From: a bacterium | GTDB taxonomy: Bacteria > Babelota > Babeliae > Babelales > RVW-14 | Assembly: GCA_016699045.1 (NCBI GenBank) | Contig: CP064957.1 | Span: forward strand, 33,613-65,612 | Direction: 5' to 3' | Length of the DNA: 32,000 bases | Shown: in pieces, positions 5,757-25,578 of the stretch | Position numbering within the stretch: position 1 is the first letter of the stretch | Layout of the letters: each line of letters starts with the position of its first letter | The notes under the pieces: model-generated | The model's input: the letters and a program-made list of their open reading frames with translations, nothing else | Databases searched by the model: none | Told to the model about the DNA's origin: nothing | Made by a program: the position numbers and the translations under genes

Positions 5757-6059
5757 TTATGAGTGCTTGATTTTGGCTTTTTTCTCGTTTGAGAGCCTTA
5801 TGAGCTCATCCCAATCCCGGGCAATTAAAGCTTCTTTTTTCCTTCTGGTCCAGCCTTTGATTTTTCGTTCCGCAGCAAGAGCTTCATCGCGCGTAACAAA
5901 GTCTTGTACAAAAACAACCTCGATTGGCAAGCGAGTGCTGGTATAACCTTTGGTTAGGCCAAAACGATGTTCGGAAATTCTTTTTTCAATATCATCTGTA
6001 TGGCCGGTGTAGTAAGATCCGTCGCTACATTTGAGGATGTAAACATAAAATGGAAGCAT
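5757..6059 (-). CDS. GIY-YIG nuclease family protein (small UPF0213-like)
   Basis: The sequence MLPFYVYILKCSDGSYYTGHTDDIEKRISEH...ERKIKGWTRRKKEALI carries the GIY-YIG signature (YVY...YTG...R...E). I place the start at ATG 6059, because the ORF-track extension to 6200 is translated repeat DNA. Confidence 0.85.
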   Translation of the reverse strand: MLPFYVYILKCSDGSYYTGHTDDIEKRISEHRFGLTKGYTSTRLPIEVVFVQDFVTRDEALAAERKIKGWTRRKKEALIARDWDELIRLSNEKKAKIKHS

Positions 6060-6115
6060 AGTATTTTTTTTATACCAATAAGATACGAATTTATTTTTCT
6101 TATTACTAATAGTAA

Positions 6116-6233
6116 CCGTTCGTCCTGAGCTTGTCGAAGGATTTGAACGGTTTCCTTTGTGCTTGGTGTGCGAGCATATTCGTCCTTTGTCCTTCGACAA
6201 GCTCAGGACATACGGACTCAGAGCGAATGGCGG
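6116..6233. repeat. Type A GC-rich palindromic repeat, inverted pair
   Basis: CCGTTCGTCCTGAGCTTGTCGAAGGATTTGAACGG (6116-6150) faces TCCTTCGACAAGCTCAGGACATACGG...CTCAGAGCGAATGG (6190-6233). The same 12-mer core, CGACAAGCTCAG, recurs at 17389, 17524 (rc), 23681, 24179 and 24290 (rc). Confidence 0.85.
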
Positions 6234-6324
6234 ATTATAAATTTTTATACTTGCGAGGTATGTTTTTACTTTTCCTTACCTCTGGTGCTTTTTTTATCAC
6301 AGGTTCTTAATATAGCCGTCAGCC

Positions 6325-6418
6325 CTGCCTGCCCGGCGTAGTTTTAACGAAGACGGGAGTTTATCGAAGGGTAGGGCGTAGTAGGAAGCGAAGCGTCTCG
6401 AAGGCCCTTGCCCGGCCC
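6325..6418. repeat. Type B GC-rich hairpin repeat cluster
   Basis: GCCCGGCGTAGTTTTAACGAAGACGGGAG...CGAAGGGTAGGGCGTAG...GCGTCTCGAAGG. Related copies lie at 12461-12500, 13946-14080, 23795-23828, 24322-24349 and 24381-24407. Confidence 0.8.
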
Positions 6419-7917: not shown

Positions 7918-8000
7918 AATAAATACCTCCAAAAAAAATGAGAATAATAACCTCACAAATGAACTATAACCTCCAAAATGGCTCCATAACCATTTCCATC

Positions 8001-9595: not shown

Positions 9596-10654
9596 TTAAG
9601 CTGTAATTACGTTCCATGCGGTATCAAGTTTGGTATCTGCGGGATTTGTTAACTGATTATAAATTGCCTGTTCTAGCAAGAAGAGCTTTCTTATTTGTGC
9701 AGCGTCTAGCGCTTTGAAGATAGCCTTGTTATCAGATGATATTGTTCCAAAATTATCGGCAGTTCCAAATTTTATAAAATTTTTGCTGAAATCATCTGGA
9801 CTAACAAACCAAGTTTTTAATGCATATTGTGCTGAAGGTTCGCCTATAATCAGGGTTGCAAGTACGCCATTGTAAGCCAGTTCTCTCTCCGCGTCTGATA
9901 CGCTTGCATCAGCATAGATTTCATTCACTTTAGCCCAGAACTGGTCAGCTGTTCCCGTGCCAGCTCCGAGTACTGCGCTTGGCGTTGTTGATGGTGTTGT
10001 TGCTGGTGCTGGTGCTGGTGCTGGTGCTGGTGGGGTTGCTGGTGCTGGTGCTGGTGCTGGTGTTGCTGGTGCTGGTGCTGGTGCTGGTGCTGGTGCTGGT
10101 GCTGGTGCTGGTGCTGGTGCTGGTGCTGGTGCTGGTGCTGGTGCTGGTGCTGGTGCTGGTGCTGGTGCTGGTGCTGGTGCTGGTGGTGGTGCTGGTGCTG
10201 GTGGGGTTGCTGGTGCTGGTGCTGGTGCTGGTGCTGGTGCTGGTGGGGTTGCTTTTACTTTATTAACGTATTTTGCAAGTTTTTGTGCGTCGTTTGGATG
10301 CTGGGATTTGAGGGCTTGAGGCATTTGCTCATCATAAAATATAGCGTTTATAAGAAGTTTGAATTGAGGCTCTAGTAAAGAATTTTTCTTAACCATTTGG
10401 TGTGCCTTTTTAACGTCGTTGGCTATAGCTTTTGCAAGCGCTGCATTATTAATATGCAAAAAGGTTAAGGCTTTGGTTGCATGATGTTTGATTGTAGGAT
10501 TTTTGCCGTTTGCAAAATCATCAGCATACTTTGGTGCTAATCTTTTGTACTCTGCGATATTTTTATACGGTTGAGTGGTAGCCTGGATGGCAAGGCCTGT
10601 GGTGGCTACCAGGAAGATTCCCAGCAACGACTTTATACGATTGTGTGCTTTCAT
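9596..10654 (-). CDS. Secreted protein with a long (Pro-Ala)n low-complexity linker
   Basis: Signal peptide MKAHNRIKSLLGIFLVATTGLAIQA with a GAGGAG ribosome-binding site. A central run of about 80 aa consists almost entirely of PA dipeptides with occasional T or PP, flanked by ordinary N- and C-terminal domains. Confidence 0.85.
   Translation of the reverse strand: MKAHNRIKSLLGIFLVATTGLAIQATTQPYKNIAEYKRLAPKYADDFANGKNPTIKHHATKALTFLHINNAALAKAIANDVKKAHQMVKKNSLLEPQFKLLINAIFYDEQMPQALKSQHPNDAQKLAKYVNKVKATPPAPAPAPAPAPATPPAPAPPPAPAPAPAPAPAPAPAPAPAPAPAPAPAPAPAPAPAPAPATPAPAPAPATPPAPAPAPAPATTPSTTPSAVLGAGTGTADQFWAKVNEIYADASVSDAERELAYNGVLATLIIGEPSAQYALKTWFVSPDDFSKNFIKFGTADNFGTISSDNKAIFKALDAAQIRKLFLLEQAIYNQLTNPADTKLDTAWNVITA
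10001..10250. repeat. Hexanucleotide microsatellite (GCTGGT)n on the + strand, equal to (CCAGCA)n on the coding strand
   Basis: About 250 nt of the 6-nt unit. The perfect run spans roughly 10065-10186, with variant units (GGGGTT, GTTGCT, GGTGGT) on either side. Confidence 0.95.
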
Positions 10655-12407: not shown

Positions 12408-12586
12408 GATACGTATTTTTTGTTTTATTCTGATGTAACATCCCGATCGTGCTGAGCTTAGCCTGCCCGTCGTAGCTCGCAGAGCGTAGTCGGGTCGAAG
12501 CATGTGAAGTCAGGGCTTCAAAGTTCAAGGTAGCTTGAAGAAGAACAAAAAAGTTAGTTATGAAAAATCAGAGGCTGTAAGAAAAA
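12408..12586. repeat. Composite repeat block to the left of TA cassette 1
   Basis: GATACGTATTTTTTGTTTTATTCTGAT (12408-12434) recurs at 13815-13840. A type B hairpin, GCCCGTCGTAGCTCGCAGAGCGTAGTCGGG, lies within 12461-12500. The tail AACAAAAAAGTTAGTTATGAAAAATCAGAGGCTGTAAGAAAAA (12544-12586) recurs inverted at 13897-13940. Confidence 0.8.
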
Positions 12587-12628: not shown

Positions 12629-12934
12629 ATGGAAATTATGAATTATCAAGATATAGAGCCATACCGAAAAGATCTTATAAAAATTATCTTCCACTATTTC
12701 CCATCGTGCCAAATATATCTTTTTGGATCACGAGCAACGCAAACTAATAACCCACATTCAGATATTGATTTGGCGATTGATTGTGGCCGCGTGGTGCCAT
12801 TGCACGATCTTTCTGCTTTGATTGAGGCCATTGACGGACTTAATATTCCGTTTTACGTTGATATTGTTGATGTACGTAATACATCGCCGGTAATGGTTGA
12901 GCAAATTAATAAATGTGGGATTTTATGGAAATAA
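12629..12934 (+). CDS. Minimal nucleotidyltransferase (MNT, HI0073-like antitoxin component), pair 1
   Basis: The sequence IYLFGSRATQTNNPHSDIDLAID carries the G-S...D-x-D polymerase-beta-fold NTase motif, and VDIVDV supplies the third acidic residue. About 100 aa, overlapping the partner gene. Confidence 0.85.
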   Translation: MEIMNYQDIEPYRKDLIKIIFHYFPSCQIYLFGSRATQTNNPHSDIDLAIDCGRVVPLHDLSALIEAIDGLNIPFYVDIVDVRNTSPVMVEQINKCGILWK

Positions 12935-13362
12935 TGACAGGAATTGAAAAATTAATTATTAAACAAACAACAACCTTACAAGCGTTGGCAAGACTTAAAG
13001 AAGAATTAGAAACTTTAAGTAAGCTTGATAATAGTTCATCTGGTGATCAAAAATTAATACGTACCTATCGTAATTCTGTAACCAAACTTTTTGAAATTTC
13101 ATTCGATCTCTTTTGGAAATATGTTAAAGAATACCTTTGGGGCATGCACGGCATTGATCAACAATCTCCCAAAAATGTATTTCGCGAATGTTTTAAGCTT
13201 GACTTTGTCAGTCAGGCAGAAACAACTCAGCTCTTAACGATGGTTGATGAACGCAATAAGTTGGTTCATACCTACAATGAAGAAGTGGCAATTCTTATCT
13301 CGTACAACATTCCTCAGTATTATAACTTGATGAATCAGTTGCTTGATGCTATGAAAGTTTAA
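12934..13362 (+). CDS. HI0074-like NTase substrate-binding / HEPN-type protein (putative toxin component), pair 1
   Basis: R-x4-H motif in DERNKLVHTY, and homology to 20498..20926. ATG 12934 overlaps the upstream TAA as TAATG; in-frame upstream ATGs at 12913 and 12925 are alternative starts. Confidence 0.8.
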   Translation: MTGIEKLIIKQTTTLQALARLKEELETLSKLDNSSSGDQKLIRTYRNSVTKLFEISFDLFWKYVKEYLWGMHGIDQQSPKNVFRECFKLDFVSQAETTQLLTMVDERNKLVHTYNEEVAILISYNIPQYYNLMNQLLDAMKV

Positions 13363-13426: not shown

Positions 13427-13816
13427 TTATGTTTTGATAAACCCACCAATTCCTTGCGCGGTAATTTTGTCTGCCAACGGAAATGTTGCATGATGCGGAT
13501 GTACCACATACAAATGGTCTAGTTTAAGATCTTGTAATGCGATTGTCATGGATGGGGTGTCGGTATATTTAATTTCAAAACCAAGTCGCTTACCATCTTT
13601 TATAATTAAAAGATCAAGTTCAGCACCGCTTTGCGTTGCCCAAAAAAAACATTCTTCAGGTTGTGCATGATACGTTTTGATAATTTCTTCGAGCACAAAA
13701 CCTTCCCACGAAGGGCCAAGCCGCGGGTAAACTTGCAATGCTGCATTGTCATTGATGCCCAAAAGTGCATGCAGCAGGCCGCTGTCGCGCAGATAAATTT
13801 TGGGCGATTTTACTGA
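13427..13816 (-). pseudogene. C-terminal fragment of a DUF4143-type AAA ATPase, 5' truncated
   Basis: KSPKIYLRDSGLLHALLGINDNAALQVYPRLG...FFWATQSGAELDLLIIKDGKRLGFEIK aligns with the C-terminal third of the intact ATPase at 14316..15488 (KSPKLYFYDTGLACWLL...VYFWRDSHGHEVDCLLDYGVDLVPIEIK). The P-loop part is absent, and homology ends at the repeat at 13815. Confidence 0.75.
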
Positions 13817-13896: not shown

Positions 13897-14095
13897 TTTT
13901 TTTACAATCTCTGCTTTTTTCATAACTAACTTTTTTTGTTTTGCCCCTTCGAGACGCCTCGCTCCTCAGGGTGAGCGGGAGCGCTTTTCTTTCTTTTAAT
14001 CCGTGCGCCCTGTTTGCCCGTCGCAGCTTTAGCGAAGTCGGGAGTTTGTCGAAGGGTAGGCCGTATGTCCTGCTTGCCCGGCGTTTCGACGTGTG
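13897..14095. repeat. Composite repeat block to the right of TA cassette 1, inverted relative to 12441-12586
   Basis: Positions 13897-13940 are the reverse complement of 12544-12586 with a few mismatches. They are followed by CCTTCGAGACGCC, a GCCCGTCGCAGCTTTAGCGAAGTCGGGAG hairpin and CGAAGGGTAGGCCGTATG, all type B family members. Confidence 0.8.
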
Positions 14096-14315
14096 CTTTT
14101 TTGGCAACAACTCCGTAGGCCTTTTTATGATTTGTCCTTGTAAATTGTCATTTCAATTTAAAAATTACAAGGATGGTGGGCAGTTGGAGTTTGTTGTTGA
14201 TGCAGTTAAAGCCTCTTTGGGACGTGTTTTTAAGCAGGGTTGTGTAATTATGTAAGTCGGGTTATAGTTTTACACAGGTAGCTTTAAGATGGTCTCTGGT
14301 GCTGAAAGGAAAAGT

Positions 14316-15488
14316 ATGTTTATCGAAAGAACCTTGAAGCCGGTGTTGCTTCACTACGCCTCAAAATTTGCTGTTGTTGCCGTTGTTGGTCCGCGGCAGT
14401 CTGGAAAAACGACGTTAACCAAAGAGGTGTTTGCCAATTATCGTTACTTCTCTTTGGAAGATCCCGATACGCTAGAAGCGGTGCGTAGCGATCCGCGCGG
14501 TTTTTTGGAACGTGATTATGGCACGCCTGGCATGATTATCGACGAATTTCAAAATGAACCGACTTTGTTGTCGTACATGCAAGGCATTGTGGACAGTAAC
14601 TATCGGCCTGGTTATTTTATTTTGACCGGTTCCCAAAACTTTTTGATGAACGAAGCGATTACGCAATCGTTGGCCGGTCGCGTTGCGTTACTCACGCTTT
14701 TACCCTTAACAGCTAACGAATTGCAGCAAAGTGCTTTGTTGCCAGAGCAGGTTGATGTCGCCATTTTTAATGGTGGCTATCCAAATATCTTTTCGCGTGG
14801 CATGAGTCCGAGTGAATTTTATCCGCAGTATACAAAAACGTATGTTGAGCGCGATGTTCGGCAGTTAGTGAATGTTGCAAAGCTGAGTGAGTTTCAACGC
14901 TTTATGCGGCTGTGCGCTGGCCGCATCGGGCAAATTTTTAATGCTTCGTCCTTGGCTGATGATTGCAATGTGAGTGTGCCAACAATCAATTCCTGGGTTT
15001 CAATTCTTGAAGCTAGCTATGTTTTATTTTTATTGCAGCCGCATTTTAAAAATTTTAGCAAGCGTCTCATTAAGTCGCCCAAACTTTATTTTTACGATAC
15101 CGGGCTTGCATGCTGGCTGTTAAAAATTGGTTCAGTTGAGCAGTTGCATGATCATTATTTGCGTGGCGGATTAATGGAATCGTTTGTGGTGGCAGAATTG
15201 TATAAAACATTTTACAACAAAGGCCTTGAGCCAACGGTTTATTTTTGGCGTGATAGCCATGGCCATGAAGTTGATTGTTTATTAGATTATGGTGTTGATC
15301 TGGTACCGATTGAGATTAAATCTGGGGCAACGGTTAATCAACGGTTTTTTGATAATCTTACATTTTGGCACACGCTTGCCGGCACTGATCGGTCGCAGGG
15401 CTATGTTGTTTATGCTGGTACTGAAAAGCATGAGCGCAGTTTCGGGACGGTAGTGAGTTGGCAGGATGTTAGTAGTATGGTGCGATAG
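14316..15488 (+). CDS. AAA ATPase with a DUF4143-type C-terminal domain
   Basis: Walker A motif GPRQSGKTTL, Walker B-like MIIDEFQ, and a C-terminal restriction-endonuclease-like block FWRDSHGHEVDCLL...IEIKSG. I place the start at ATG 14316 (MFIERTLK), after AAAGGAAAAG. Confidence 0.85.
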   Translation: MFIERTLKPVLLHYASKFAVVAVVGPRQSGKTTLTKEVFANYRYFSLEDPDTLEAVRSDPRGFLERDYGTPGMIIDEFQNEPTLLSYMQGIVDSNYRPGYFILTGSQNFLMNEAITQSLAGRVALLTLLPLTANELQQSALLPEQVDVAIFNGGYPNIFSRGMSPSEFYPQYTKTYVERDVRQLVNVAKLSEFQRFMRLCAGRIGQIFNASSLADDCNVSVPTINSWVSILEASYVLFLLQPHFKNFSKRLIKSPKLYFYDTGLACWLLKIGSVEQLHDHYLRGGLMESFVVAELYKTFYNKGLEPTVYFWRDSHGHEVDCLLDYGVDLVPIEIKSGATVNQRFFDNLTFWHTLAGTDRSQGYVVYAGTEKHERSFGTVVSWQDVSSMVR

Positions 15489-15547: not shown

Positions 15548-17224
15548 TTAGTTAGATGCTTTTCGTCCTGGAGGTAAGCCTTGGTCAGTTCTTCTGCGTG
15601 AAGGTGCGGCTGGCTGTTCAGGAGCTGCGGCTGCTGGTTGCTCGGTTGTGGTGCCTTGATCTGGTGACGATGCTTGAGCTTGTTGAGCAGCTACTGCGGC
15701 ATTGTATTCTGCGAGTTGTTTATTATACTCAGCCATTTTTTGTTGATAATCAGCTTCAGCGGCGGCGGCAGCATCTGTAGCAGCTTGGTCTGTTGTTGTG
15801 GCTGCAGGTTGGGCTGCGGCTGCTGGTTGCTCGGTTGTGGTGCCTTGATCTGGTGACGATGCTTGAGCTTGTTGAGCAGCTACTGCGGCATTGTATTCTG
15901 CGAGTTGTTTATTATATTCGGCCATTTTTTGTTGATAATCAGCTTCAGCGGCGGCGGCAGCATCTGCAGCGGCTTGGTCTGTTGTTGCGGCTGCAGGTTG
16001 GGCGATTAGCGTTGCTTCGTCTAGTGCCATTTGTTGTTCGACCGCGGCTTGTTCTGCTGGTTCGGTAATGACTATTCTTTTTGTAGAGATTTTTGATGGG
16101 ACAATGCCGGTATTTTTTGGTGCTGCATCGGTTGTTTCATCGATCGCTTGATCATCGGCGCTTGCTTGGTCATCTGGTACTATTTGAGCTTTTTTGGCTA
16201 CCGCGTCTTGGTGCTTCTTTCTTTTTCCAGGTTTACCTTTTATTTTTTTGCCTGCTTGTTTATGAGGTTTTCTGGCTGGATATTTTTTTGAACTGATCAC
16301 TTTTTGTTTGCCACCGTGTTTTGGTTTAACGCCTTGTTTTGCGCGTGCATGGTCGGCAAGTGTTTTCTTTTCTTCAGGCGTTAATTTTTTAGGGTCTTTG
16401 AGCAATAATGCCTTGATGGCTTTTTTATCAGCCTTTTTTTGTTCTAAGCGCTCAAGCATTGCCGTTTCTTGTTCCGTCAACGTGGTGCCGGCAGCTTTTT
16501 TTGCTTGAAGATCTTTAAGATATTGGTCGGCGATCATATTTTTTTCTACGCGCTCGCGCTCGCGTTCAATTTTGCTTTGTATGTTGCCGCCTTTTATTTT
16601 AGCGCGTGGCTGTTGAAGCTTAGCGCGTGGATGTTGGAGTCTTTTTTTGACGTGGTGTTTTTTTTGCTTATGCCCACCCTTGCCGCCGCCTTGGCGTCTG
16701 TTTTTGCGATTCATTATTTCTTGCATGATATGGTCGTTTGCTGCAAGTTTTTGCATTTTGTTTTTTTTGTTTTTTTTCAAAAATTTTGGACGTCTTTTTT
16801 GTTTGCTTTTACCACGAGCGATACGTTTTTTATGACGTCCGCCAACGCGTCTTTTGTGTGTTTTGCGTCCGACATTTGGTCTGCGTTGTCGGCGTTGTTC
16901 TGGTGCTTTTTGTTCTTCTTCTTTTGCTTGAGCAACGGTGCGATTAATTTCTTTGCGCAAAAGTTTAAGAAAGCGAGCAGGGATGGCGCCAGGGATTGCA
17001 TGAACTTTTTGTTTTGGCTGAACAACTTGCACTGTGGCATGGGTTTTTTTAGCTTTATGTCCTTTTTTTCCAGGCGCATGTTTTTTGGAGCCTTTTTTTT
17101 GATGCGGTGCTTTTGTAGGCAACGTATCGGCGGCTGTCCACGCCGTAGCAGGATTTAACAAAAGTAAGAGGGTGAGTAGATGCAAGGCGCGTAAGGCAGA
17201 GGGTCGTTTTATGGAACGTGACAT
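15548..17224 (-). CDS. Secreted, extremely Lys/Arg/His-rich protein with an Ala/Gln-rich tandem-repeat C-terminus
   Basis: I place the start at ATG 17224 (MSRSIKRPSALRALHLLTLLLLLNPATAWTA), with AAGGAG 6 nt upstream. Basic tracts include KKGSKKHAPGKKGHKAKKTH and RRQRRPNVGRKTHKRRVGGRHKKRIARGKSKQKRRPKFLKKNKKNK. The C-terminal part contains two 63-aa repeats. Confidence 0.85.
   Translation of the reverse strand: MSRSIKRPSALRALHLLTLLLLLNPATAWTAADTLPTKAPHQKKGSKKHAPGKKGHKAKKTHATVQVVQPKQKVHAIPGAIPARFLKLLRKEINRTVAQAKEEEQKAPEQRRQRRPNVGRKTHKRRVGGRHKKRIARGKSKQKRRPKFLKKNKKNKMQKLAANDHIMQEIMNRKNRRQGGGKGGHKQKKHHVKKRLQHPRAKLQQPRAKIKGGNIQSKIERERERVEKNMIADQYLKDLQAKKAAGTTLTEQETAMLERLEQKKADKKAIKALLLKDPKKLTPEEKKTLADHARAKQGVKPKHGGKQKVISSKKYPARKPHKQAGKKIKGKPGKRKKHQDAVAKKAQIVPDDQASADDQAIDETTDAAPKNTGIVPSKISTKRIVITEPAEQAAVEQQMALDEATLIAQPAAATTDQAAADAAAAAEADYQQKMAEYNKQLAEYNAAVAAQQAQASSPDQGTTTEQPAAAAQPAATTTDQAATDAAAAAEADYQQKMAEYNKQLAEYNAAVAAQQAQASSPDQGTTTEQPAAAAPEQPAAPSRRRTDQGLPPGRKASN
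15623..16000. repeat. Tandem duplication, 2 x 189 nt (63 aa), inside the 15548..17224 CDS
   Basis: By eye, copies 15623-15811 and 15812-16000 differ at only about 5 positions. Confidence 0.9.
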
Positions 17225-17374
17225 CGTGTCTCCTTCGATTAGGATTTTTTCAAAAACTACGTTAATCAAGACCCTAGCATGTGGCTAATTTGAAATGGAA
17301 GTATTTTGAAAAATGGGAAAAAAGAGCACTAAAAAAAGCCGATCAGTGAATTATGTTTTTAGTACTTTAAGGTG

Positions 17375-17549
17375 CCGTTCAAATTCTTCGACAAGCTCAG
17401 AACGAACGGCTGCAATGCCAAGGGCTCATAAAAGACAAGAAAAAGAGCTTTCAAAAATTTACACAGTAAAAAATCTAAAGTACTGCCGTTTAGTTTAAAA
17501 AAGATTCATATCCGCCGTTCGTTCTGAGCTTGTCGAAGAATTTGAACGG
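17375..17549. mobile_element. MITE-like element with perfect 35-bp terminal inverted repeats of the type A family
   Basis: CCGTTCAAATTCTTCGACAAGCTCAGAACGAACGG (17375-17409) is the exact reverse complement of 17515-17549. The 105-nt AT-rich spacer has no coding capacity. Confidence 0.75.
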
Positions 17550-17583
17550 CCGTATAAATCAAATGGTGTGAATTGGCAAATAA

Positions 17584-17617
17584 CAAAAAAAGCCGATCTG
17601 AACGACCGGCTTTTTTT
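17584..17617 (-). terminator. Rho-independent terminator after the MNT-HEPN operon, part of a 67-nt repeat
   Basis: The AGCCGATC...GACCGGCT stem is flanked by an A-run and a T-run. A near-identical copy lies at 18435-18467. Confidence 0.7.
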
Positions 17618-17644: not shown

Positions 17645-18055
17645 TTACTTTTCGAAAAGAGGTAAGTTATTTTTCGGCAAAGCCGTAACTTTTTTTTCAA
17701 CAAAATTTAAAATCTTGTTGGCCATGCTAATTGCTTGTTTAATGTCTTCTTGATCTACAAAAAAACGGTCGTCAGGATAGCGCGAATAAACGCCATACGG
17801 ATTTAAAAAAAGTGCTTCGTTTTCAAGGGTTTTAAACGATGAATCTGCTTGAGCACATTCTTCTAAAATTTTTTCGAGATCATGACTTTTTAAAACAGGT
17901 TTTTTGCAAAAAACTAAATATGTTTTGAGTGCTTTTTCGGCACATTGATGTGCAAGATAAACAGTAACGTCTCCTACCTCTTCATTGCTCGATGACATTT
18001 TTGCAACTATTAAATCGTTTGAGGCTTTTCTCAGCCAGTCTTTAATTCCTGGCAT
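17645..18055 (-). CDS. HEPN domain protein (putative toxin of an MNT-HEPN pair), pair 2
   Basis: The sequence reads ...AHQCAEKALKTYL...KSHDLEKIL...YSRYPDD, which is classical HEPN-domain-like. Its ATG overlaps the upstream NTase gene by 14 nt. Confidence 0.75.
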   Translation of the reverse strand: MPGIKDWLRKASNDLIVAKMSSSNEEVGDVTVYLAHQCAEKALKTYLVFCKKPVLKSHDLEKILEECAQADSSFKTLENEALFLNPYGVYSRYPDDRFFVDQEDIKQAISMANKILNFVEKKVTALPKNNLPLFEK

Positions 18056-18362
18056 AAATTACCTTCCCTTTATTTTTAACTTGGTAAGGCAGCGTTGTGT
18101 AGTCAGACGTTCGTGCATCAAATTCTTCTTGCGTGTATACCAATAAATCTTTAGATATACTTAAACCCCATAATGCCTTCATACCGGCAAACGCTCGATG
18201 TTGCGGGCGTTCATTTGAAGATTCTACAATTACCAATAAATCTAAATCGCTATCGTCGTGAGGGGTGCCCCACGCATAAGAACCAAAAAGATAAATAGTT
18301 GTAGGTTGGTAAACAGCAACCAGTCTGTTTTTTACTTCTTCAATAACTTCTGGGCTAATCAT
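18042..18362 (-). CDS. Nucleotidyltransferase domain protein (MNT antitoxin component), pair 2
   Basis: IYLFGSYAWGTPHDDSDLDLLVIV carries the G-S...D-x-D motif. I place the start at ATG 18362 (MISPEVIEEV), because the ORF-track extension to 18518 runs through the terminator repeat. Confidence 0.82.
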   Translation of the reverse strand: MISPEVIEEVKNRLVAVYQPTTIYLFGSYAWGTPHDDSDLDLLVIVESSNERPQHRAFAGMKALWGLSISKDLLVYTQEEFDARTSDYTTLPYQVKNKGKVIYARN

Positions 18363-18434
18363 GGTTTTATCCTTTTCTGGCGCTTTAAAGACGTTTTTGT
18401 CAGTGTAAATAAAATGGTACGAATTGGCAAATAA

Positions 18435-18467
18435 CAAAAAAGCCGATCTGGATGACCGGCTTTTTTT
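18435..18467 (-). terminator. Rho-independent terminator of the 18490..20037 gene, second copy of the 67-nt repeat
   Basis: On the - strand, AGCCGGTC-atccagat-CGGCT is followed by TTTTTTGTT. Confidence 0.7.
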
Positions 18468-18489
18468 AAACGAGAGAGCGTGAATTTTT

Positions 18490-20037
18490 TTAGAATGCAA
18501 GACCAGCTTTGCCACCAATTTCCCAGTTGCTCAGTGCTGCATTGTCTGAAGCCCATTCATAATGCGTGTGGAAGCCAACCAAAAGTGGTACTTGGAACGT
18601 TTGCGATTGATATGAAACGCCGGCATAAATTTTGTTGCTCAATTGCGATGGCGTTTCTGCAGTTTGGGTGGTGATGTTGCTATCGACAAGTGGCACTTGC
18701 AGTTCACCAACAGAAATTCCTGAGCCGCTTGCGGTAGCACTTGGCGTTACAATGCCCCATTTGTTTGCGGTTGTACCAAAAATTGGTGTATTTTTTTTGC
18801 GATCAACATCTTCTTGATCGCGGTAGTACAGGTTGTAGCCAAGATCGATAGTAAAACCGCGGTTGTGGTAGGCAAAAGCAAGAATCATGTCGAGCTGGCT
18901 GCCGGGAGTGACATCGCAATCAACCGTCAATTTATTAGCGGCAGGAATCAAAATTGTGGCTGCGCCAGTAACTTGACCAACAAGTGCATAATGGCCCCAA
19001 GGAATTATGCTGCCATCGGTATTTTTTAAACCGAGCGTTCTTTGTTCAGTGCTTTGAAATAGATAGCGATAGTTTAGGGCGCCGTGAAATGAGAAGTTGT
19101 GTTGGTTGTGTTGCCACATGATGGCGCCGCCATCAAGGCCGGCACCAAAACCCCAGTGAGTGCCATTGCCAACGATTGCTTGAAAAAGTTTTTCGCTTTT
19201 TACATCATCGCCAGTTGGGATAGTAACGCCCACGTTGACGGCCAAGCGATAGTTTTCGTGGTACAAGCAGTAGTAACCAAGCATGAATTCGATGTCGGCG
19301 ATGCCGCTTGAACTATCATCGTTATTCGTTTTACCAAATTTTAAAAACTGCAGAGCAGCTTGCGCATTGGTAGCGTCGTTGTTGGCGCCGGTGCCATCAA
19401 AATAATTTTTCAAAGCGTTGGTAACTGATGTTGCAACAACGGCAGCTGTGCCAATGTTGATGGTTGCCGCATTGTACACTTCGGTAAAGTTGGCATTAAT
19501 ATTATTTTCAACATTAACAATTGGTACGTTGAGTGAGAAATAAAGACCATTCAGCGCTTTGTCTAAATTTTGGTGATGATTGAGCGTGATGCCGTACGCA
19601 CGTTGTTGTGGGTTGAGGGAAAGTTGTACAAGCTCGGTTGGTGTGCCGCTGGCAATGCCTGCGGAGTAGTGTACAAAGTGGCGGTAGTTTAAGGTTTGTG
19701 CGGTAACCGGGGCGTTGCCGCTATTTGAGCCAAAGTTGAAATTATTTTCTTTAAGTTGGTTTGTTGGTGGGTTGGTTGCTGGTGCAAAATATTCGCCCGC
19801 CTCATCTTTGTCTGTTGATGCCTGATAATAACCAATTACTTGCAAGCAACCGTTGTAACCCTTGTTTGTGCCTTCTCGATGCATTAAGTTTTGCCAGCCG
19901 TTTACATTTTCAAGCGCCAAATTAACGCCGTGTGATCGTGGATTTAAAAATGTTTTATTGTGCGCATCGTCTGCGTGCACGTGCGCTATGGCTGCCAGTG
20001 CGGCGATGATAAGACTTTTTTGTATGACGTTCTTCAT
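18490..20037 (-). CDS. Outer-membrane beta-barrel protein (porin-like), paralog 2
   Basis: Signal peptide MKNVIQKSLIIAALAAIAHVHA with a GGAGAG ribosome-binding site. The C-terminus is ...GGKAGLAF. It is strongly similar to 21031..22602 along its whole length. Confidence 0.82.
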   Translation of the reverse strand: MKNVIQKSLIIAALAAIAHVHADDAHNKTFLNPRSHGVNLALENVNGWQNLMHREGTNKGYNGCLQVIGYYQASTDKDEAGEYFAPATNPPTNQLKENNFNFGSNSGNAPVTAQTLNYRHFVHYSAGIASGTPTELVQLSLNPQQRAYGITLNHHQNLDKALNGLYFSLNVPIVNVENNINANFTEVYNAATINIGTAAVVATSVTNALKNYFDGTGANNDATNAQAALQFLKFGKTNNDDSSSGIADIEFMLGYYCLYHENYRLAVNVGVTIPTGDDVKSEKLFQAIVGNGTHWGFGAGLDGGAIMWQHNQHNFSFHGALNYRYLFQSTEQRTLGLKNTDGSIIPWGHYALVGQVTGAATILIPAANKLTVDCDVTPGSQLDMILAFAYHNRGFTIDLGYNLYYRDQEDVDRKKNTPIFGTTANKWGIVTPSATASGSGISVGELQVPLVDSNITTQTAETPSQLSNKIYAGVSYQSQTFQVPLLVGFHTHYEWASDNAALSNWEIGGKAGLAF

Positions 20038-20213: not shown

Positions 20214-20516
20214 ATGAAAGAATTAGATATAAAAACAAAAGAAAAGATAATAAATATTGTGCATGCGCTTATCGCTGATGCTGATATTTATTTGTTTGGT
20301 TCGCGAGCAACTGGGCAGCACCATGCCCACTCAGATATTGACCTTGCACTCGATGCTGGAAAAAAATTGGATCGGTTGGTAGTTGGCGAGGTTAAAGATT
20401 TACTGAGCGCTTCAAATATTCCCTATAAATTTGATGTTGTTGATGTGCATAATGTTGGCGATGATTTAAAAAGAGATATTATGAAAGAGGGTGTTTTATG
20501 GGCAAAGAGAAAGTAA
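20214..20516 (+). CDS. Minimal nucleotidyltransferase (HI0073-like), pair 3
   Basis: IYLFGSRATGQHHAHSDIDLALD plus FDVVDV, a clear paralog of 12629..12934. Confidence 0.85.
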   Translation: MKELDIKTKEKIINIVHALIADADIYLFGSRATGQHHAHSDIDLALDAGKKLDRLVVGEVKDLLSASNIPYKFDVVDVHNVGDDLKRDIMKEGVLWAKRK

Positions 20517-20926
20517 CTAAAAAAATAGATCATTTTGAAAAAGCTTTAAAAACATTGAACACGGTTCTGGTAAGATTTGAAGAAGTGACGCCAGATTACA
20601 AAGATTATCTTTTTATTCGCGATTCACTTATTCAGCGCTTTGAATATTGTACTGATATGTTTTGGAAAGTTCTTCGTGAGTTTATTATAGAAAAGCATGG
20701 CGTTGATGTGCTGGCAAGTCCCAAGGCTGTTCTTAAAGAAGCATTTGATGTGTATTTGATTGATGAAAAGCAATATACGCAGTTATTGACATCCGTTAAT
20801 GATCGGAATTTAACGTCGCATGCGTATCAAGAAGATGTTGCATTGCAGATTGTTGAATATGTTGCTGATTCTTACCAGCTCATGAAAATAATTATCGAAA
20901 AGATAAATCAAGAAATAAATCTTTAG
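20498..20926 (+). CDS. HI0074-like NTase substrate-binding / HEPN-type protein, pair 3
   Basis: R-x4-H motif in NDRNLTSHAY, plus SLIQRFEYCTDMFWKVL. It overlaps the upstream gene by 19 nt. Confidence 0.82.
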   Translation: MGKEKVTKKIDHFEKALKTLNTVLVRFEEVTPDYKDYLFIRDSLIQRFEYCTDMFWKVLREFIIEKHGVDVLASPKAVLKEAFDVYLIDEKQYTQLLTSVNDRNLTSHAYQEDVALQIVEYVADSYQLMKIIIEKINQEINL

Positions 20927-20973
20927 CGCGAGTCCGCACGATTCAGTAAAGCATTTTATTAAAAATGAGTAAT

Positions 20974-21005
20974 AAAAAAAGCCGGTCAGTACGACCGGCT
21001 TTTTG
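20974..21005. terminator. Bidirectional terminator between convergent genes
   Basis: GCCGGTC-agtac-GACCGGC is flanked by AAAAAAA upstream and TTTTT downstream. Confidence 0.7.
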
Positions 21006-21030: not shown

Positions 21031-22602
21031 TTAGAACGCAACGCCAGCCTTCGCGCCAATACCCCAGTTGCTAATACCGGTATTGTCTGAAGCCCATTCA
21101 TAATGTCCGTTAAGACCTACAAACAATGGCACATCCCAGCCGTAGGTTGCGTAAGCAACGCCAGCATAGATTTTGTGTGTGAGTTGTGATGGTGTTTCTG
21201 CATTGTCGGTGGTAACGTTCTTTGAGTCAACAAGAGTAAGTCCGTTAACAAAGGAGGAACCGTTATTTGCTATACCAACAGAAGTATTTACATCTGGATT
21301 TACAATACCCCATGAGTTAGGACCAGCTGTAAGTTCACCAAAAATGGCTGTTGAACCTTTGCGATCAACATCTTCTTCTTCACGGAAGAACATGTTGTAA
21401 CCAAGGTCGAACGTGAAGCCACAGTAGTGGTACGCAAAAGCAACGATCATATCAAGTTGGCTGCCTGGTGTAACGTCGCAATCAACGGTCAACATGTTTG
21501 CAGCTGGAACCAAGGTTACAGCGCCGCCAGTAGCGTTTGATTTGCCAACAAGTGCATAATGGCCCCAAGGAATGATGTTTCCTGCAGCGTCTTTCAAGCC
21601 AAGAGTTCTCTTTTCTGTGCCTTCAAACAAATAGCGATAGTTCAATGCTGAGTGGAAGGTCAAGCTGTGATCGCCATCGTGCCACATTGTTGCGCCGCCG
21701 TCAAAGCCTGCACCAAGTGCCCAATGATCGCCGTTACCAACAAGAGCTTCGAAAAGCTTTTTGCATTCTGCATCATCGCCGGTTGGGATGGTGAAGCCCA
21801 TGTTCACTGCCAAACGGTATTTGTTTTTGTACAAGAAGTAATAACCAAGAATGAAGTCGATGTCTGCAACGCCTGTTGAGCTGTCTTCATTGTTTTTAGC
21901 ACCAAACTTCAAGAATTGAAGAGCTGCTTGTGAGTTGTTTGCTGCATTATTTGAGAAAGTACCGTCGAAGTAACCTTTTAATGCATCAAGAGCTGAAGGT
22001 TGTGGAGCAAGGAGTGGATTACCAACTTCACCAAGAGCTGCCACTGGAACCGCGCCAGCTGCATATTCTGGATCAATGCTGTTTTCAACGTTTACAATTG
22101 GCACATTGATCTTGAAGTAAAGACCTTTAAGTATTTTGTCTAAATCTTGATGATAGTTCAAGGTAACGCCGTAAGCACGTTGTTCTGGGTTGAGGCTGAG
22201 TTTGACTGTTTCGCCAACTGCAATATCTGTTCGTTGATGTACGAAATTACGGAAGTTCAAAGTTTGTGTCACGGCGGTGTTGCCAGCAGCTGATCCAAAG
22301 TTGAAGTCGTTGTCTTTGAGTGGGTTATCTACTGGGTTAGTTGCTGGAGCAAAATATTCGCCCAATTCTTCTTCATCAGTTGAAGCCATGTAATAACCAA
22401 TCACTTGAAAGTTACCGCCAAATGTATCGTCGGCACCTTTGCGGTGAATCAGTTTTTGCCAGCCGTTCACGTTTTCAAGCGCAAGGTTTACGCCGTGTGA
22501 ACGAGGGTTTAAAAATGTTTGGTTGTGTGCGTCGTCGGCTTGTACGTTTGACATGACTGCCAAAGCAGTAAGCAAAAGACTATTTCTTATTACTTTATTC
22601 AT
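21031..22602 (-). CDS. Outer-membrane beta-barrel protein (porin-like), paralog 3
   Basis: I place the start at ATG 22602 (MNKVIRNSLLLTALAVMSNVQA), with GGAG 9 nt upstream. The ORF-track start at 22617 is a GTG. The C-terminus is ...GAKAGVAF. Confidence 0.82.
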   Translation of the reverse strand: MNKVIRNSLLLTALAVMSNVQADDAHNQTFLNPRSHGVNLALENVNGWQKLIHRKGADDTFGGNFQVIGYYMASTDEEELGEYFAPATNPVDNPLKDNDFNFGSAAGNTAVTQTLNFRNFVHQRTDIAVGETVKLSLNPEQRAYGVTLNYHQDLDKILKGLYFKINVPIVNVENSIDPEYAAGAVPVAALGEVGNPLLAPQPSALDALKGYFDGTFSNNAANNSQAALQFLKFGAKNNEDSSTGVADIDFILGYYFLYKNKYRLAVNMGFTIPTGDDAECKKLFEALVGNGDHWALGAGFDGGATMWHDGDHSLTFHSALNYRYLFEGTEKRTLGLKDAAGNIIPWGHYALVGKSNATGGAVTLVPAANMLTVDCDVTPGSQLDMIVAFAYHYCGFTFDLGYNMFFREEEDVDRKGSTAIFGELTAGPNSWGIVNPDVNTSVGIANNGSSFVNGLTLVDSKNVTTDNAETPSQLTHKIYAGVAYATYGWDVPLFVGLNGHYEWASDNTGISNWGIGAKAGVAF

Positions 22603-23136
22603 ACTTATCTTCTCCACAAATTTATTAGTTTAACATGGTAACGTTTGTTTTGTTGAACAAGAACGTTTGCGTGAATGTGCTTGGTAGAAGCGATTGATGC
22701 CGTTGGCAAAAAAACGTCCATCAATAACATTTTTTTTTAGGGCTTCCTCCTTTCTTCATTGACTACCTTTTGAGATCTTTCTACCTACTCAAATCACGTA
22801 AAAACAGTAGCGTGTTGCGTGTGTTTAACGTGTGCGTATTGACTTAGAGTTGGTGATTTGCTTGACTGGTGCTGTATCTTTATGCGGCACCAATTTTACC
22901 CCTCAACAATCTCATGTTGATAGACTAACGATCCTCAACTAATATATCAAGTATTTTTTCACAGAAAGCTTGAATAGGCCTGCTGATCGATAAAATGGAG
23001 GTTAATTTTTTCTGTTTTTTTAATTTCAAACGTACACAGTTTTGAAAAAAATATCAGATGAGCCGATAAAGTATTAGAATGTTTTTGGTTATGATGTGAA
23101 TATAAAATTTTTTAAAATTTTTTTATCAAAGAGGGA

Positions 23137-24837
23137 ATGATGAGTAATTTTTTGTCTTGGGTCGTCTGTGTGCAAATTATTGGTGAGTCGTTGCCAATTA
23201 GTAGCTCTTCGCACGTGCGCTTGCTTATGATGCTTGTGTCATTGGTTGGTGGGGCAGCTTTTTTTGGACAACCAATCCCTGATTTTTTGGATCATTTTTT
23301 GCATGGCTCAATGGTCTTGATTATTATATTTTTTTTTCGACACGTGTGGGTGCCGATCTTTTGGCGACTTGTTGATGTGGTGCGTGCGTATGCGTTTCGC
23401 GTGCGTGTGCGCGATAGCCAGCGGGCGTTGGCTTGTGTGTGCCTGTGGCTGATTTTTTATGTTGGTTGTGCGAGTGTGATTACCGCACTTTTTTATAGTG
23501 TGATTAAAGTTATTTTGAAGTACAATGCGGTGCTGGCGCATGAAGCTACCATGCTTGTTGGTTTGTGTGTGACAGCAGGTTTGCTGTGGTCTTTGCGGTA
23601 TGTGGACCTTTGTCCTTCAATCTTTCAGTCTTCGCTAAAGCTTCGCCGGACTTCGTCGACAAACTGCTCCTTCGATCCTTCGACAAGCTCAGGACGTACG
23701 GAGCTCAGGGCGAACGGGCTTCAGGATAAGTGTGACGGGTGTAAAAAGTCTTGTAACGTAGAGAAAAATATTCACGCTCTCTCCGTTCGCCCTGCTTGTC
23801 CGTCGAAGCTTGTAGAGCGTAGTCGGGAGCTTGCCACGCCCTTTAAAGCCACGAAGGGCGAAGAATGGGTCGAAGGGTCTTGTGTTTCTAAAAAAAATGC
23901 AGCTCAGAGCGATCTTAGTAAGTGTGAATATGCTTCTCGTTGTTCCAAGGCCTGTTCTCAAAACCTGAGGGACAAAGAACAGGACAATTTTGAGACGAGC
24001 AAAAGAACCTTATGTTTTAATGAAAAGCGCAGAATAGAATTGAATCAGCGACAAGCGCAAGGTGAACGGACTGATTGCGTATGTGATTCTTGTGATTATG
24101 TGTCTCATTGCAAAAAAAAGGTATGTCCGTGCTTGCCTGTTGAAGAGTCTGGGGTTGCTGAGAAAAATGAAGACCCTTCGACAAGCTCAGGGTGTACGGG
24201 GCTCAGGGTGTGTGGGTCTTTGAATAAGCAAGAAAAGCGTAATGGGGAGTCTTTTTGTTCTTTGGCTTTCAATAACAAATCCGTATGCCCTGAGCTTGTC
24301 GAAGGGTCTGCCTGCTCTGCGTGCCCGTCGAAGTGTCAACGAAGTCGGGATCTTGTCTATTCGACACAGTCTGTCGACTTGTCCGGCGAAGCTTTAGCGA
24401 AGTCGGAAGGGTTGAGGGGCGAAGATCAAAGAGCGAAGACGGAAGAAAAAAAACTCACAAGTTTTAAAATCTACGCCATTCTCGGTCTGGTTCAAGGCCT
24501 CGCACTGCTGCCCGGCATCTCGCGTTTTGCCAGCACGTACGTTGCTGCTCGTTGGCTTGGCTTTTCAACACGACGCGCTTTTCAGGTGTGCTTTTTGCTC
24601 GAGCTACCAATTGTGCTTGCAGCGTTTTTAGTGCTGGGTGTTGGCGGGGCGTGCAGGCAGCATGGCTGGGCAGTGGTTGGTGAACCGAGCGTCATGCTCA
24701 CCATAGTTGGTGCAACGGTTGTTGGTTATGGAGCTCTTTGGGCAGCCTGGTGGTTGGCAGAGCGGCGCTTATTGTGGCTGTTTTCAGTATATCTACTGCT
24801 GCCCATCTTGACTGTGCTATACTTAATTTTTCAATAA
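23137..24837 (+). CDS. uppP: Undecaprenyl-diphosphate phosphatase (UppP/BacA) with a repeat-derived in-frame insertion of about 277 aa
   Basis: The N-terminal box is IIGESLPISSSSHVRLL (compare E-x-x-x-E-x-LP-x-SS-x-x-H of BacA). The C-terminal box is LPGISRFASTYVAARWLG (compare PG-x-SRSG) and is followed by TM helices. The recognisable halves (about 163 and 127 aa) add up to a normal UppP length. Confidence 0.85.
   Translation: MMSNFLSWVVCVQIIGESLPISSSSHVRLLMMLVSLVGGAAFFGQPIPDFLDHFLHGSMVLIIIFFFRHVWVPIFWRLVDVVRAYAFRVRVRDSQRALACVCLWLIFYVGCASVITALFYSVIKVILKYNAVLAHEATMLVGLCVTAGLLWSLRYVDLCPSIFQSSLKLRRTSSTNCSFDPSTSSGRTELRANGLQDKCDGCKKSCNVEKNIHALSVRPACPSKLVERSRELATPFKATKGEEWVEGSCVSKKNAAQSDLSKCEYASRCSKACSQNLRDKEQDNFETSKRTLCFNEKRRIELNQRQAQGERTDCVCDSCDYVSHCKKKVCPCLPVEESGVAEKNEDPSTSSGCTGLRVCGSLNKQEKRNGESFCSLAFNNKSVCPELVEGSACSACPSKCQRSRDLVYSTQSVDLSGEALAKSEGLRGEDQRAKTEEKKLTSFKIYAILGLVQGLALLPGISRFASTYVAARWLGFSTRRAFQVCFLLELPIVLAAFLVLGVGGACRQHGWAVVGEPSVMLTIVGATVVGYGALWAAWWLAERRLLWLFSVYLLLPILTVLYLIFQ
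23623..24453. repeat. Nest of type A and type B palindromic repeats inside uppP, bounded by inverted type B copies
   Basis: The core CGACAAGCTCAG occurs at 23681 and 24179, and reverse-complemented at 24290. Type B hairpins lie at 23795-23828, 24322-24349 and 24381-24407. CTTCGCTAAAGCTTCGCCGGAC (23629-23651) is the inverse of the copy at 24381-24407. Confidence 0.85.
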
Positions 24838-24853: not shown

Positions 24854-25147
24854 ATGATTGAAGAGCAGTACAAAGATCGGCTTGTTGCCATCATTTCAAA
24901 ACACCTGCCGGGGTGTTCAATTTATATGTATGGTCCGTGGGCTCAAAGTCAGGGTTGCTTGCCGATGCCGATTGGTGTGGCGCTTGATGATCGTGCACAA
25001 GAAATTGATATCGCGGTACTTGGCACTATTTTAGACGACCTTCATGAATCAACTATTCCGTATTGTGTTGAGCTTGCCGATATGAATGATGAGTATGATG
25101 ACATTGTGAAAGAAGTAAAAAAGGGTTTTGTGGTATGGAAACAATAG
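24854..25147 (+). CDS. Degenerate MNT-like protein with NTase catalytic motif lost, pair 4
   Basis: It aligns with 20214..20516, but IYLFGSRATGQHHAHSDIDLALD has become IYMYGPWAQSQGCLPMPIGVALD (GS to GP, DID to PIG). AGGAG ribosome-binding site 16 nt after the uppP stop. Confidence 0.75.
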   Translation: MIEEQYKDRLVAIISKHLPGCSIYMYGPWAQSQGCLPMPIGVALDDRAQEIDIAVLGTILDDLHESTIPYCVELADMNDEYDDIVKEVKKGFVVWKQ

Positions 25148-25578
25148 CATGTCGGCACCAGCAACGGTTGCATGAAAAACTTAAAGCGTTGGAAGAGGTT
25201 TTGTATGATATCAATCATGTAAGCGAATGGTGCGATGAACAGGACCAGGTAAGAGCTACCAAGCTTGCACACATGATGCACGATTCTTTAACCAAGCGCT
25301 TTGAATATTGTGTTGATGAGTTAAGTAACTATTTAGCAGCGCGCGTCCAAAAACCAGGGGCAATGAGTCGCGCAAAAAATATGCGCGATGTGGTTCGGTT
25401 GGCCGTACATGCAGGCGTTTTAACACCTCAACTTGGGGAGCAAGCGCTCGTGATGCTTTCGATAAAGAATAGTATTAGCCAGCTTGAACGTGCTGACCGA
25501 GAACCGTTTGTTCAAGATGTTAGCAACTATTGCAATTTGATGAAAACTATTGTTGAAAAACACGATCTGCAAAAATAA
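25135..25578 (+). CDS. Degenerate HI0074/HEPN-like protein with R-x4-H motif lost, pair 4
   Basis: SLTKRFEYCVDEL aligns with SLIQRFEYCTDMF of pair 3. The motif position NDRNLTSH reads SIKNSISQ (R to K, H to Q). It overlaps the upstream gene by 13 nt. Confidence 0.72.
   Translation: METIACRHQQRLHEKLKALEEVLYDINHVSEWCDEQDQVRATKLAHMMHDSLTKRFEYCVDELSNYLAARVQKPGAMSRAKNMRDVVRLAVHAGVLTPQLGEQALVMLSIKNSISQLERADREPFVQDVSNYCNLMKTIVEKHDLQK

Follow-up and report, generated by a model that had tools for sequence, protein, structure and literature searches.

How does the gene for a polytopic membrane enzyme come to be doubled in length and yet keep an open frame from end to end? The question is raised by uppP, the gene for undecaprenyl-pyrophosphate phosphatase (UppP, also called BacA), in a 32,000-nucleotide stretch of a Babelales genome (contig CP064957.1 of GCA_016699045.1, positions 33,613 to 65,612 of the forward strand). 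This stretch is hereafter the window, and positions are counted from its first letter. The answer that we regard as quite probable is that selfish palindromic repeats, nested one within another, are tolerated in a permissive loop of UppP, where only frame-preserving states have survived.

The uppP gene and its in-frame insert

The initial annotation described a 566-amino-acid open reading frame (ORF) with enzyme sequence at both ends, and this description holds. Pfam BacA (PF02673) matches the ORF in two stretches, at 93.7 bits against a cut-off of 33.4 (E = 2e-26), and both signature boxes of UppP, QIIGESLPISSSSH and LPGISRFAST, are intact. The alignment to other UppPs covers residues 1-155 and 437-566, together 285 residues and a normal UppP length, and leaves out the 281 codons in between. 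The in-frame insert itself, placed earlier at 23623-24453, stands, and its boundaries are better drawn at 23602-24444. The gene divides as follows, where dN/dS is the ratio of non-synonymous to synonymous substitution rates and pLDDT the predicted local distance difference test score:

23137-24837, forward strand: uppP/bacA ORF, 566 amino acids, identical to NCBI QQR49268.1
23137-23601, forward strand: N-terminal enzyme half, amino acids 1-155, with QxxxE and the PISSSSH box, its last codons being the conserved SLR; dN/dS 0.25-0.29
23602-24444, forward strand: in-frame insert of 843 nucleotides (nt), or 281 codons; hydrophilic, net charge +6, 24 Cys, mostly pLDDT <50
24445-24834, forward strand: C-terminal enzyme half, amino acids 437-566, with the LPGISRFAST box; dN/dS 0.14-0.19

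Ten residues are invariant across a 10-sequence UppP alignment (Q13, E17, S22, S23, H26, P459, G460, S462, R463 and T467). The first catalytic box conforms to (E/Q)xxxE...PxSSSxH, with Q13-E17 and PISSSSH. The residue after Arg in the second catalytic box is Phe, not Ser (PGISRFAST versus PGxSRSxxT), and the score with the NCBIfam UppP equivalog models, 60.6 bits, is far below their cut-off of 217.5. By sequence, the protein belongs to a diverged, Dependentiae-type branch; its nearest relatives, 351 and 374 amino acids long, come from Candidatus Babeliales (Dependentiae/TM6). It shares the Pfam family, the catalytic boxes and the predicted helix pattern with UppP/BacA of Escherichia coli (5OON, 6CB2), and a profile of the Dependentiae family matches 5OON at 2e-11. 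AlphaFold2 models the enzyme cores at a pLDDT of 70-94. The top Foldseek matches of the whole model are the BacA structures 6FMT and 5OON (probability 0.99-1.0, E = 0.16-0.37), with the insert breaking the alignment, such that only 124 columns of the C-terminal half are covered; this half superposes on E. coli BacA at 2.9 Å (Foldseek probability 1.0). The dN/dS values were obtained against two orthologues, and both halves are under purifying selection; as both values are low (0.14-0.29), the gene is not decaying. The order uppP, nucleotidyltransferase/HEPN pair, ftsK and Mur ligase is syntenic in a relative, L081. The label of uppP as normally essential is an assumption; E. coli survives the loss of BacA and has overlapping PAP2 phosphatases (PMC5861054).

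The insert holds no stop in the uppP frame, compared to 6-24 in each of the other five frames. None of 20000 dinucleotide-preserving shuffles was open (Poisson P = 3.6e-6), which, together with the low dN/dS of the flanking halves, bears out the earlier proposal that the frame is preserved beyond chance. The encoded peptide is hydrophilic and Cys-rich, as had been noted, with a mean hydropathy of -0.78 and 24 Cys in 281 residues. Its best 19-residue window reaches 0.43 versus 2.4-2.6 in the cores; with no window resembling a transmembrane segment, the topology of UppP should stay unchanged. Most of the insert is predicted with low confidence (pLDDT <50 at residues 173-269 and 311-426). Its position comes from profile alignment to E. 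coli BacA (5OON), which places it on LKPKEPRAPGLDDMT, the α5-α6 loop (Lys140-Thr153), in agreement with the linker between the enzyme halves first suggested. This loop is extended, positively charged and cytoplasmic (Workman et al., PMC5861054), and comprises 14 residues in E. coli BacA versus ~290 in the window UppP. An exhaustive HMMER search of the insert peptide against 1.84 billion representative proteins found no true homologue: it returned the protein itself (3e-179) and two weak matches, P0011 and P0012, which were rejected as unrelated tandem-repeat proteins. The insert is therefore not a conserved domain, an alternative that the initial annotation had named.

Nested palindromes and the hairpin unit

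Folded as a single strand (23596-24450), the insert has a minimum free energy (MFE) of -341 kcal/mol (z = -15.9) and forms one outer palindrome around three inner ones, which confirms the multi-copy nest that had been proposed. The palindromic features, which carry no strand, are:

23605-23666, no strand: outer palindrome, left arm, pairing with 24367-24427 over 55 bp (MFE); nested-hairpin motif reversed at 23626-23646
23668-23877, no strand: inner palindrome 1, 210 nt span, in which 23668-23717 pairs with 23783-23877
24007-24122, no strand: inner palindrome 2, with a 22 bp stem (24007-24035 with 24095-24122); degenerate
24171-24309, no strand: inner palindrome 3, a REPIN-like doublet with 30-bp arms (24171-24200 / 24280-24309) that are 93% complementary
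24317-24357, no strand: further copy of the nested-hairpin motif (GCCCGTCGAAGTGTCAACGAAGTCGGG), from the repeat comparison
24367-24427, no strand: outer palindrome, right arm; nested-hairpin motif at 24386-24406

The core of the outer arms (23605-23651 / 24381-24427) is 47 nt long and 83% complementary, and contains the inverted terminal copy reported before. Inner palindrome 1 consists, on its left, of a hairpin unit with the loop TTCGACAAGCTCA at 23679-23691 plus CTCAGGGCGAACGG at 23704-23717 and, on its right, of an extended reverse unit (23783-23877), the loop of which hosts a nested hairpin (23797-23829). The loops of inner palindrome 3 lie at 24177-24189 (forward) and 24291-24303 (reverse-complemented). 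Inner palindrome 2 is only 65-71% like the core unit, and its similarity to the intergenic copies is not significant. Arm complementarity of 83% in the outer element versus 93% within would be compatible with the outer element being the older.

These sequences recur between the genes of the window. The core CGACAAGCTCAG is found at 23681, 24179 and, reverse-complemented, 24290, exactly where it had been annotated. With as many as 3 mismatches allowed, the 19-mer CCTTCGACAAGCTCAGGAC is found at 8 places in the window versus 0.00 expected, with 3 copies in the insert and 5 intergenic; copies 23675-23701 and 6116-6142 are 96% identical. A second motif, GCGAAGCTTTAGCGAAGTCGG, lies at 14021, 23626 (reverse-complemented) and 24386, with 0 expected. 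The intergenic copies are:

6109-6410, no strand: repeat cluster with a hairpin doublet, 6116-6142 (reverse-complemented) plus 6190-6235, and an extended unit, 6315-6405
12449-12500, no strand: copy of the nested-hairpin motif, from the repeat comparison
13945-14085, no strand: palindromic element, CCCTTCGAGAC...CTCAGGGTGAGCGG / CCGTGCGCCCTG[nested hairpin]TTTGTCGAAGGG
17374-17550, no strand: REPIN-like doublet, the arms of which span 44 nt (93% complementary) around an 89-nt spacer

The element at 13945-14085 lies between an AAA_14/DUF4143 ATPase gene (14289-15488, forward strand) and a fragment of a second (13427-13762, reverse strand); L081 has three such ATPase genes in 21 kb.

The initial annotation distinguished two kinds of repeat in the insert. 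Both are present, but they are not separate: the second motif (GCCCGTCG...CGAAGTCGGG) turns out to be a hairpin that sits within the first unit's loop, as in CCCTG[...]TTTGTCGAAGGG at 14008-14058, and two other Dependentiae loci (L016 and L162) host different hairpins at that position. We therefore read the two as one hairpin family with nested variants. Across copies from the window, other Dependentiae and metagenomes, the 13-nt loop of the unit, TTCGACARGCTCA, is invariant, and the short stem closing it shows compensatory substitutions (CC/GG, GG/CC, TGC/GCA and others). The three pairs nearest the loop can form in 88-92% of 60 sequences, and each shows 14-25 double-sided changes; the covariation score of 0.45 compares with 0.18 in shuffles, of which 0 in 500 reach 0.45, and with 0.06-0.17 when the partners are slid. 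A covarying stem around an invariant loop would point to a folded strand, rather than the ends of a duplex, as what is recognised. By direct reading, the unit contains a stop in only one of six frames. It matches no Rfam family, and four canonical loci carrying the nuclease gene described below gave only chance-level Rfam matches at E up to 1.

The loop in relatives and the competing explanations

We located uppP in Dependentiae genomes, with both halves matched in 61 loci. Measured from the first matched codon to the last, uppP covers 199-326 codons in 59 of these and 350 codons in L001; the pairing of halves in L063 was rejected as spurious, since the two lie in different frames with 27 stops. 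The long insert is thus lineage-specific, the outcome of the orthologue comparison that had been called for. Shorter and different inserts, with 0-1 Cys, occupy the same linker in two Babeliales relatives. In L001, one palindromic element 235 nt long, its arms measuring 58 nt each, follows directly on the conserved SLR codons (z = -7.1). The L081 linker combines a related left arm with a core-unit doublet that is read as PSTGSG...PELVEGS. CCGGACTTCGTC... and CTCAGGGCGAACGGG occur both in the L001 arm and in the left part of the insert in the window. The site was probably occupied already in the ancestor common to the window genome and these two relatives, and would then have grown here by nested insertion. 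The UppP of L162, only 31% identical to that of the window, nevertheless has its own ~200-nt palindrome in the same loop, and P0004 has a repeat-like linker judged from the peptide alone (SFDKLRTSAG, KLRRTGR). Such recurrent occupancy may reflect either independent insertions that passed the filter of selection or an ancient occupancy that was lost repeatedly. Two further candidates were set aside: the extra sequence of L030 lies in a different loop and has no clear palindrome, and the match in L076 looks like chance.

In Dependentiae ORFs, the hairpin unit is read in frame as PSTSSG, PELVEG, LRQAQG, SFDKLR or VVSLSNH. As these are differing reading frames, they fit the passive removal of stop-containing states rather than selection for one peptide. 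Examples outside uppP are a Lys/Gln-rich, secreted-looking protein with LRQAQG twice in L001 (2-1081, reverse strand) and LRQAPG in L081 (3026-4801, reverse strand), and a 765-amino-acid protein with VVSLSNH and an RRTGR-type segment (L011:6492-8786, forward strand). In-frame colonisation is accordingly not confined to uppP.

We propose that non-coding selfish palindromic repeats landed one inside another in codons of the cytoplasmic α5-α6 loop. Two hairpin units in inverted orientation form a REPIN- or MITE-like doublet (MITE, miniature inverted-repeat transposable element), and the loop can host a further hairpin. UppP would need both halves in one polypeptide with unchanged topology, and the survivors would be insertions that brought no stop, frameshift or new membrane helix. 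The 281 open codons may thus exist because only stop-free, in-frame, helix-free states survive, and such insertions would be attainable because the unit is stop-free in five of six frames. The product, if translated throughout, would be a UppP with a long, mostly disordered, slightly basic cytoplasmic loop, most likely a tolerated passenger and not a new domain.

Several observations weigh against this proposal. No target-site duplication is evident by eye at the L001, L162 and window junctions, and no pair of empty and filled sites was found, so that mobility is inferred from dispersal. The insert had been described as built from the intergenic repeats. A repeat is indeed shared (the 19-mer with its eight copies), but not over the whole extent: significant similarity to the four intergenic clusters of the window covers only 233 of 843 nt (28%), or 33% at a softer cut-off, and the central ~340 nt (23834-24170), while palindromic, are not demonstrably the intergenic repeat and could have another origin. 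One 44-residue helix in the insert (264-307) is modelled at a pLDDT of 64-80. The allele is known from one assembly (protein cluster size 1). Lastly, TGY codons number 24 in frame compared to 4 and 14 in the other two frames and ~9 expected from base composition, an excess that a neutral passenger does not fully explain.

The Cys codons and the helix count towards a different, and in our judgement unlikely, explanation: that the repeat-derived segment has been exapted as a functional cytoplasmic module of UppP, such as a Cys-rich metal-binding or redox-sensing domain or a docking arm, its frame being kept for the sake of the peptide. Cys makes up 8.5% of the insert versus 0.75% of the 14 other window proteins, the translation contains several CxxC, CxC and CxxxC spacings, and the helix is modelled at moderate confidence. 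However, no homologue was found in 1.84e9 proteins, the inserts of the two orthologues differ, are much shorter and have at most one Cys, and most of the insert is modelled at a pLDDT below 50. Part of the Cys excess comes with the reading frame of the nested hairpin, where TTGCCCGTCG becomes xCPS, twice. Two Cys of the core unit, by direct reading, correspond to CGY in sister copies (CGTACGG to TGTACGG; CCGTACGCCC to CCGTATGCCC), and TGA counts across the three frames of the insert are 0, 4 and 12. It is suggestive that these apparent CGY-to-TGY changes resemble C-to-T decay of CpG-rich repeats in an AT-rich genome, with CGA-to-TGA changes purged; the Cys-richness may therefore be partly compositional in origin, which is suggested and not proven.

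Somewhat less weight can be given to the long allele not being a functional gene, either as an assembly artefact at a repeat-rich locus or as a decaying copy beside another active undecaprenyl-pyrophosphate phosphatase. Repeats are a classic source of misassembly, the assembly is a single one, and the overlapping PAP2 phosphatases that let E. coli tolerate the loss of BacA (PMC5861054) make a decaying copy conceivable. Neither artefact nor decay, however, would hold 281 codons open (P ~4e-6) and in register with the C-terminal half, and dN/dS is low on both sides of the insert. The arms are imperfect (83-93% complementary) and enclose unique spacers, unlike chimeric inverted duplications, and in-frame palindromes stand at the same site in the independent genomes L001, L081 and L162.

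About as unlikely is that the insert is removed or bypassed, by intron or intein splicing or by cutting of an mRNA hairpin to give two half-polypeptides that assemble: the predicted 55-bp outer RNA stem joins the halves and would be a good substrate for a double-strand RNase, and UppP is built from two structural repeats, but these are interlocked rather than consecutive (PMC5861054), which makes a simple two-piece enzyme less plausible, an open in-register frame would not be selected if the insert were taken out, no Rfam family, intron or other, reaches its gathering score in the window (23500-24550 giving only chance-level matches at E up to 1), the one Pfam family found in the 566-residue protein at the same E limit is BacA, with no Hint/intein domain, and the insert contains no detectable intrinsic terminator or promoter, the regional counts being no higher than in shuffles.

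A GIY-YIG nuclease gene, known systems and other features

A gene that may bear on how the repeats move adjoins one of the intergenic doublets:

5760-6059, reverse strand: UPF0213/YhbQ-type GIY-YIG nuclease gene, 100 amino acids, adjoining the 6109-6235 doublet

The protein matches Pfam GIY-YIG (9e-18) and the structures 1ZG2 (4e-17) and 1YWL (1e-13). Such a gene is present in 3 of 82 Dependentiae sequences (the window, L050 and L016), and all three are among the eight that have the core motif, a coincidence expected by chance at ~6e-4 (own calculation). In L050 (2838-3464), the unit forms part of perfectly complementary 40-nt arms on either side of the gene, and a second pair, of 60 nt, encloses these. 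Of a metagenome set of 80 loci (L082-L161) encoding GIY-YIG relatives, 51-72% identical, 72 had sufficient flanking sequence to be evaluated. Across the 241 kb of the set, the 14-nt motif was counted 150 times versus ~1.5 expected (own calculation). In 31 of the 72, the gene has a reverse copy upstream and a forward copy downstream, each no more than 100 nt away (median 12 nt in both cases); a further 8 have the motif on a single flank, and one violation of the orientation was seen. The hairpins are thus associated with the GIY-YIG gene. The GC content of the loci ranges from 34% to 71%, which suggests that the gene-bearing unit has spread horizontally.

The only gene-bearing relative carries a GIY-YIG nuclease and not a transposase, and no DDE-transposase insertion sequence was found that could serve as a parent. 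It may be that the UPF0213-type nuclease mobilises the hairpins. More broadly, and tentatively, as we consider it somewhat less than an even chance, the hairpins could be non-autonomous members of an undescribed mobile system, the enzyme of which is a ~95-amino-acid UPF0213/YhbQ GIY-YIG nuclease. This system would be an analogue of REPIN-RAYT on another fold, with a smallest gene-bearing unit of ~380 bp (hairpin, nuclease ORF, inverted hairpin) in bacteria of 34%-71% GC; in Dependentiae it would invade coding sequence in frame, the uppP nest being the extreme case. Two findings count against such a role for the nuclease: the window gene stands beside its doublet and not inside, with no copy downstream, and 33 of the 72 metagenome loci lack the loop motif. 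That the middle of the insert might be the remnant of a GIY-YIG gene was also considered and rejected, the best tblastn match having an E of 0.11 over 26 residues in an insert-only database. In the open-access literature that was searched we found no paper linking GIY-YIG or UPF0213 to REP-like repeats or describing the bracketing arrangement, and none on palindromic repeats in Dependentiae.

The closest behavioural parallel is with the Rickettsia palindromic elements (RPEs) of Ogata et al. (2000, 2002; summarised in PMC10969869). The initial annotation drew this comparison, which is apt for behaviour and not for family membership. Like the uppP repeats, RPEs are short selfish palindromes located both between genes and in frame within unrelated genes, and add a peptide segment at a fold-compatible site in a host-dependent bacterium with a small genome. 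The uppP repeats belong to another phylum (Dependentiae/Babeliales, not Rickettsia) and another family, and the likeness is claimed as an analogy. Furthermore, an RPE is a single element of ~100-150 bp, whereas the uppP nest comprises several elements (843 nt, 281 amino acids) and doubles a polytopic membrane enzyme; unlike RPEs, the uppP repeats occupy the same loop in several lineages, and their unit is associated with a GIY-YIG gene.

Structurally, the repeats resemble repetitive extragenic palindromes (REPs), their REPIN doublets and the associated RAYT nucleases (Bertels and Rainey 2011, PMC3116915; Nunvar et al.). Both have a hairpin unit of conserved sequence, a mobile-looking inverted doublet and a small nuclease gene between inverted units, with no obvious target-site duplication. 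Two defining features set them apart. The RAYT nuclease is an HUH tyrosine transposase, whereas the hairpin-flanked gene encodes a UPF0213/YhbQ GIY-YIG nuclease, and REPs are extragenic by definition, whereas the hairpin units also lie inside uppP and other ORFs.

Bacterial MITEs (ERIC, BOX, QMITE1 and the Anabaena MITEs; PMC10969869) are comparable in being small, with terminal inverted repeats and no transposase of their own, and in being occasionally read through in a host ORF; the L001 element (235 nt, 58-nt arms) and the window doublets (100-210 nt) likewise are small, have terminal inverted repeats and lack a transposase gene. Differences from MITEs are that here no DDE-transposase parent and no target-site duplication was seen, and that a covarying stem surrounds an invariant loop. 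As for the UPF0213/YhbQ proteins of known structure (1ZG2, 1YWL) that match the window nuclease, neither flanking by hairpin pairs nor a link to dispersed repeats is described in searchable papers.

In-frame colonisation of genes by selfish palindromes, so far treated as a Rickettsia curiosity, would thus extend to another phylum of host-dependent bacteria, and on a new scale, with a polytopic membrane enzyme doubled and apparently unbroken. One cytoplasmic loop of UppP apparently takes up to 280 extra residues, which may be useful for engineering or tagging BacA, an antibiotic target. The inserts at this one site (0, ~60, ~90 and ~280 extra residues) offer a natural series for studying protein birth from non-coding repeats. 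The nuclease link, for its part, offers a testable function for the widespread UPF0213/YhbQ family, whose structures are solved and whose role is not known, and suggests a second, independent REP/RAYT-like system, the more novel result if confirmed.

Other features of the window concern its gene content. Four nucleotidyltransferase/HEPN pairs of the MNT-HEPN, toxin-antitoxin-like type lie within the 32 kb (12629-13362, 17645-18518, 20214-20926 and 24854-25578). They share a 39-nt conserved stretch (repeat D18), and one pair, directly downstream of uppP, is conserved in L081. Two paralogous genes of ~520 amino acids with no Pfam match, 18490-20037 and 21031-22617, both on the reverse strand, have ~75% DNA identity over most of their length (repeats D2, D4, D5, D8, D9 and D13); L081 has three similar genes (517-580 amino acids) in the corresponding place. 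Within an ORF of 352 amino acids without a Pfam match (9596-10654, reverse strand), 9929-10297 holds 22 overlapping repeat copies at 12- or 9-nt spacing, a period of 3 to 4 codons. In-frame tandem repeats also occur at 15624-16001 and 6701-7048, inside large ORFs without a Pfam match (15548-17269 and 6490-7956); one of these arrays consists of two 189-nt copies that are 97% identical, the other of two 147-nt copies that are 93% identical and part of a third. Finally, three 35-nt copies of an A-run, GC hairpin and T-run (AAAAAGCCGATCTGAACGACCGGCTTTTT), at 17581-17615, 18431-18465 and 20970-21004, look like bidirectional terminators reused between genes.

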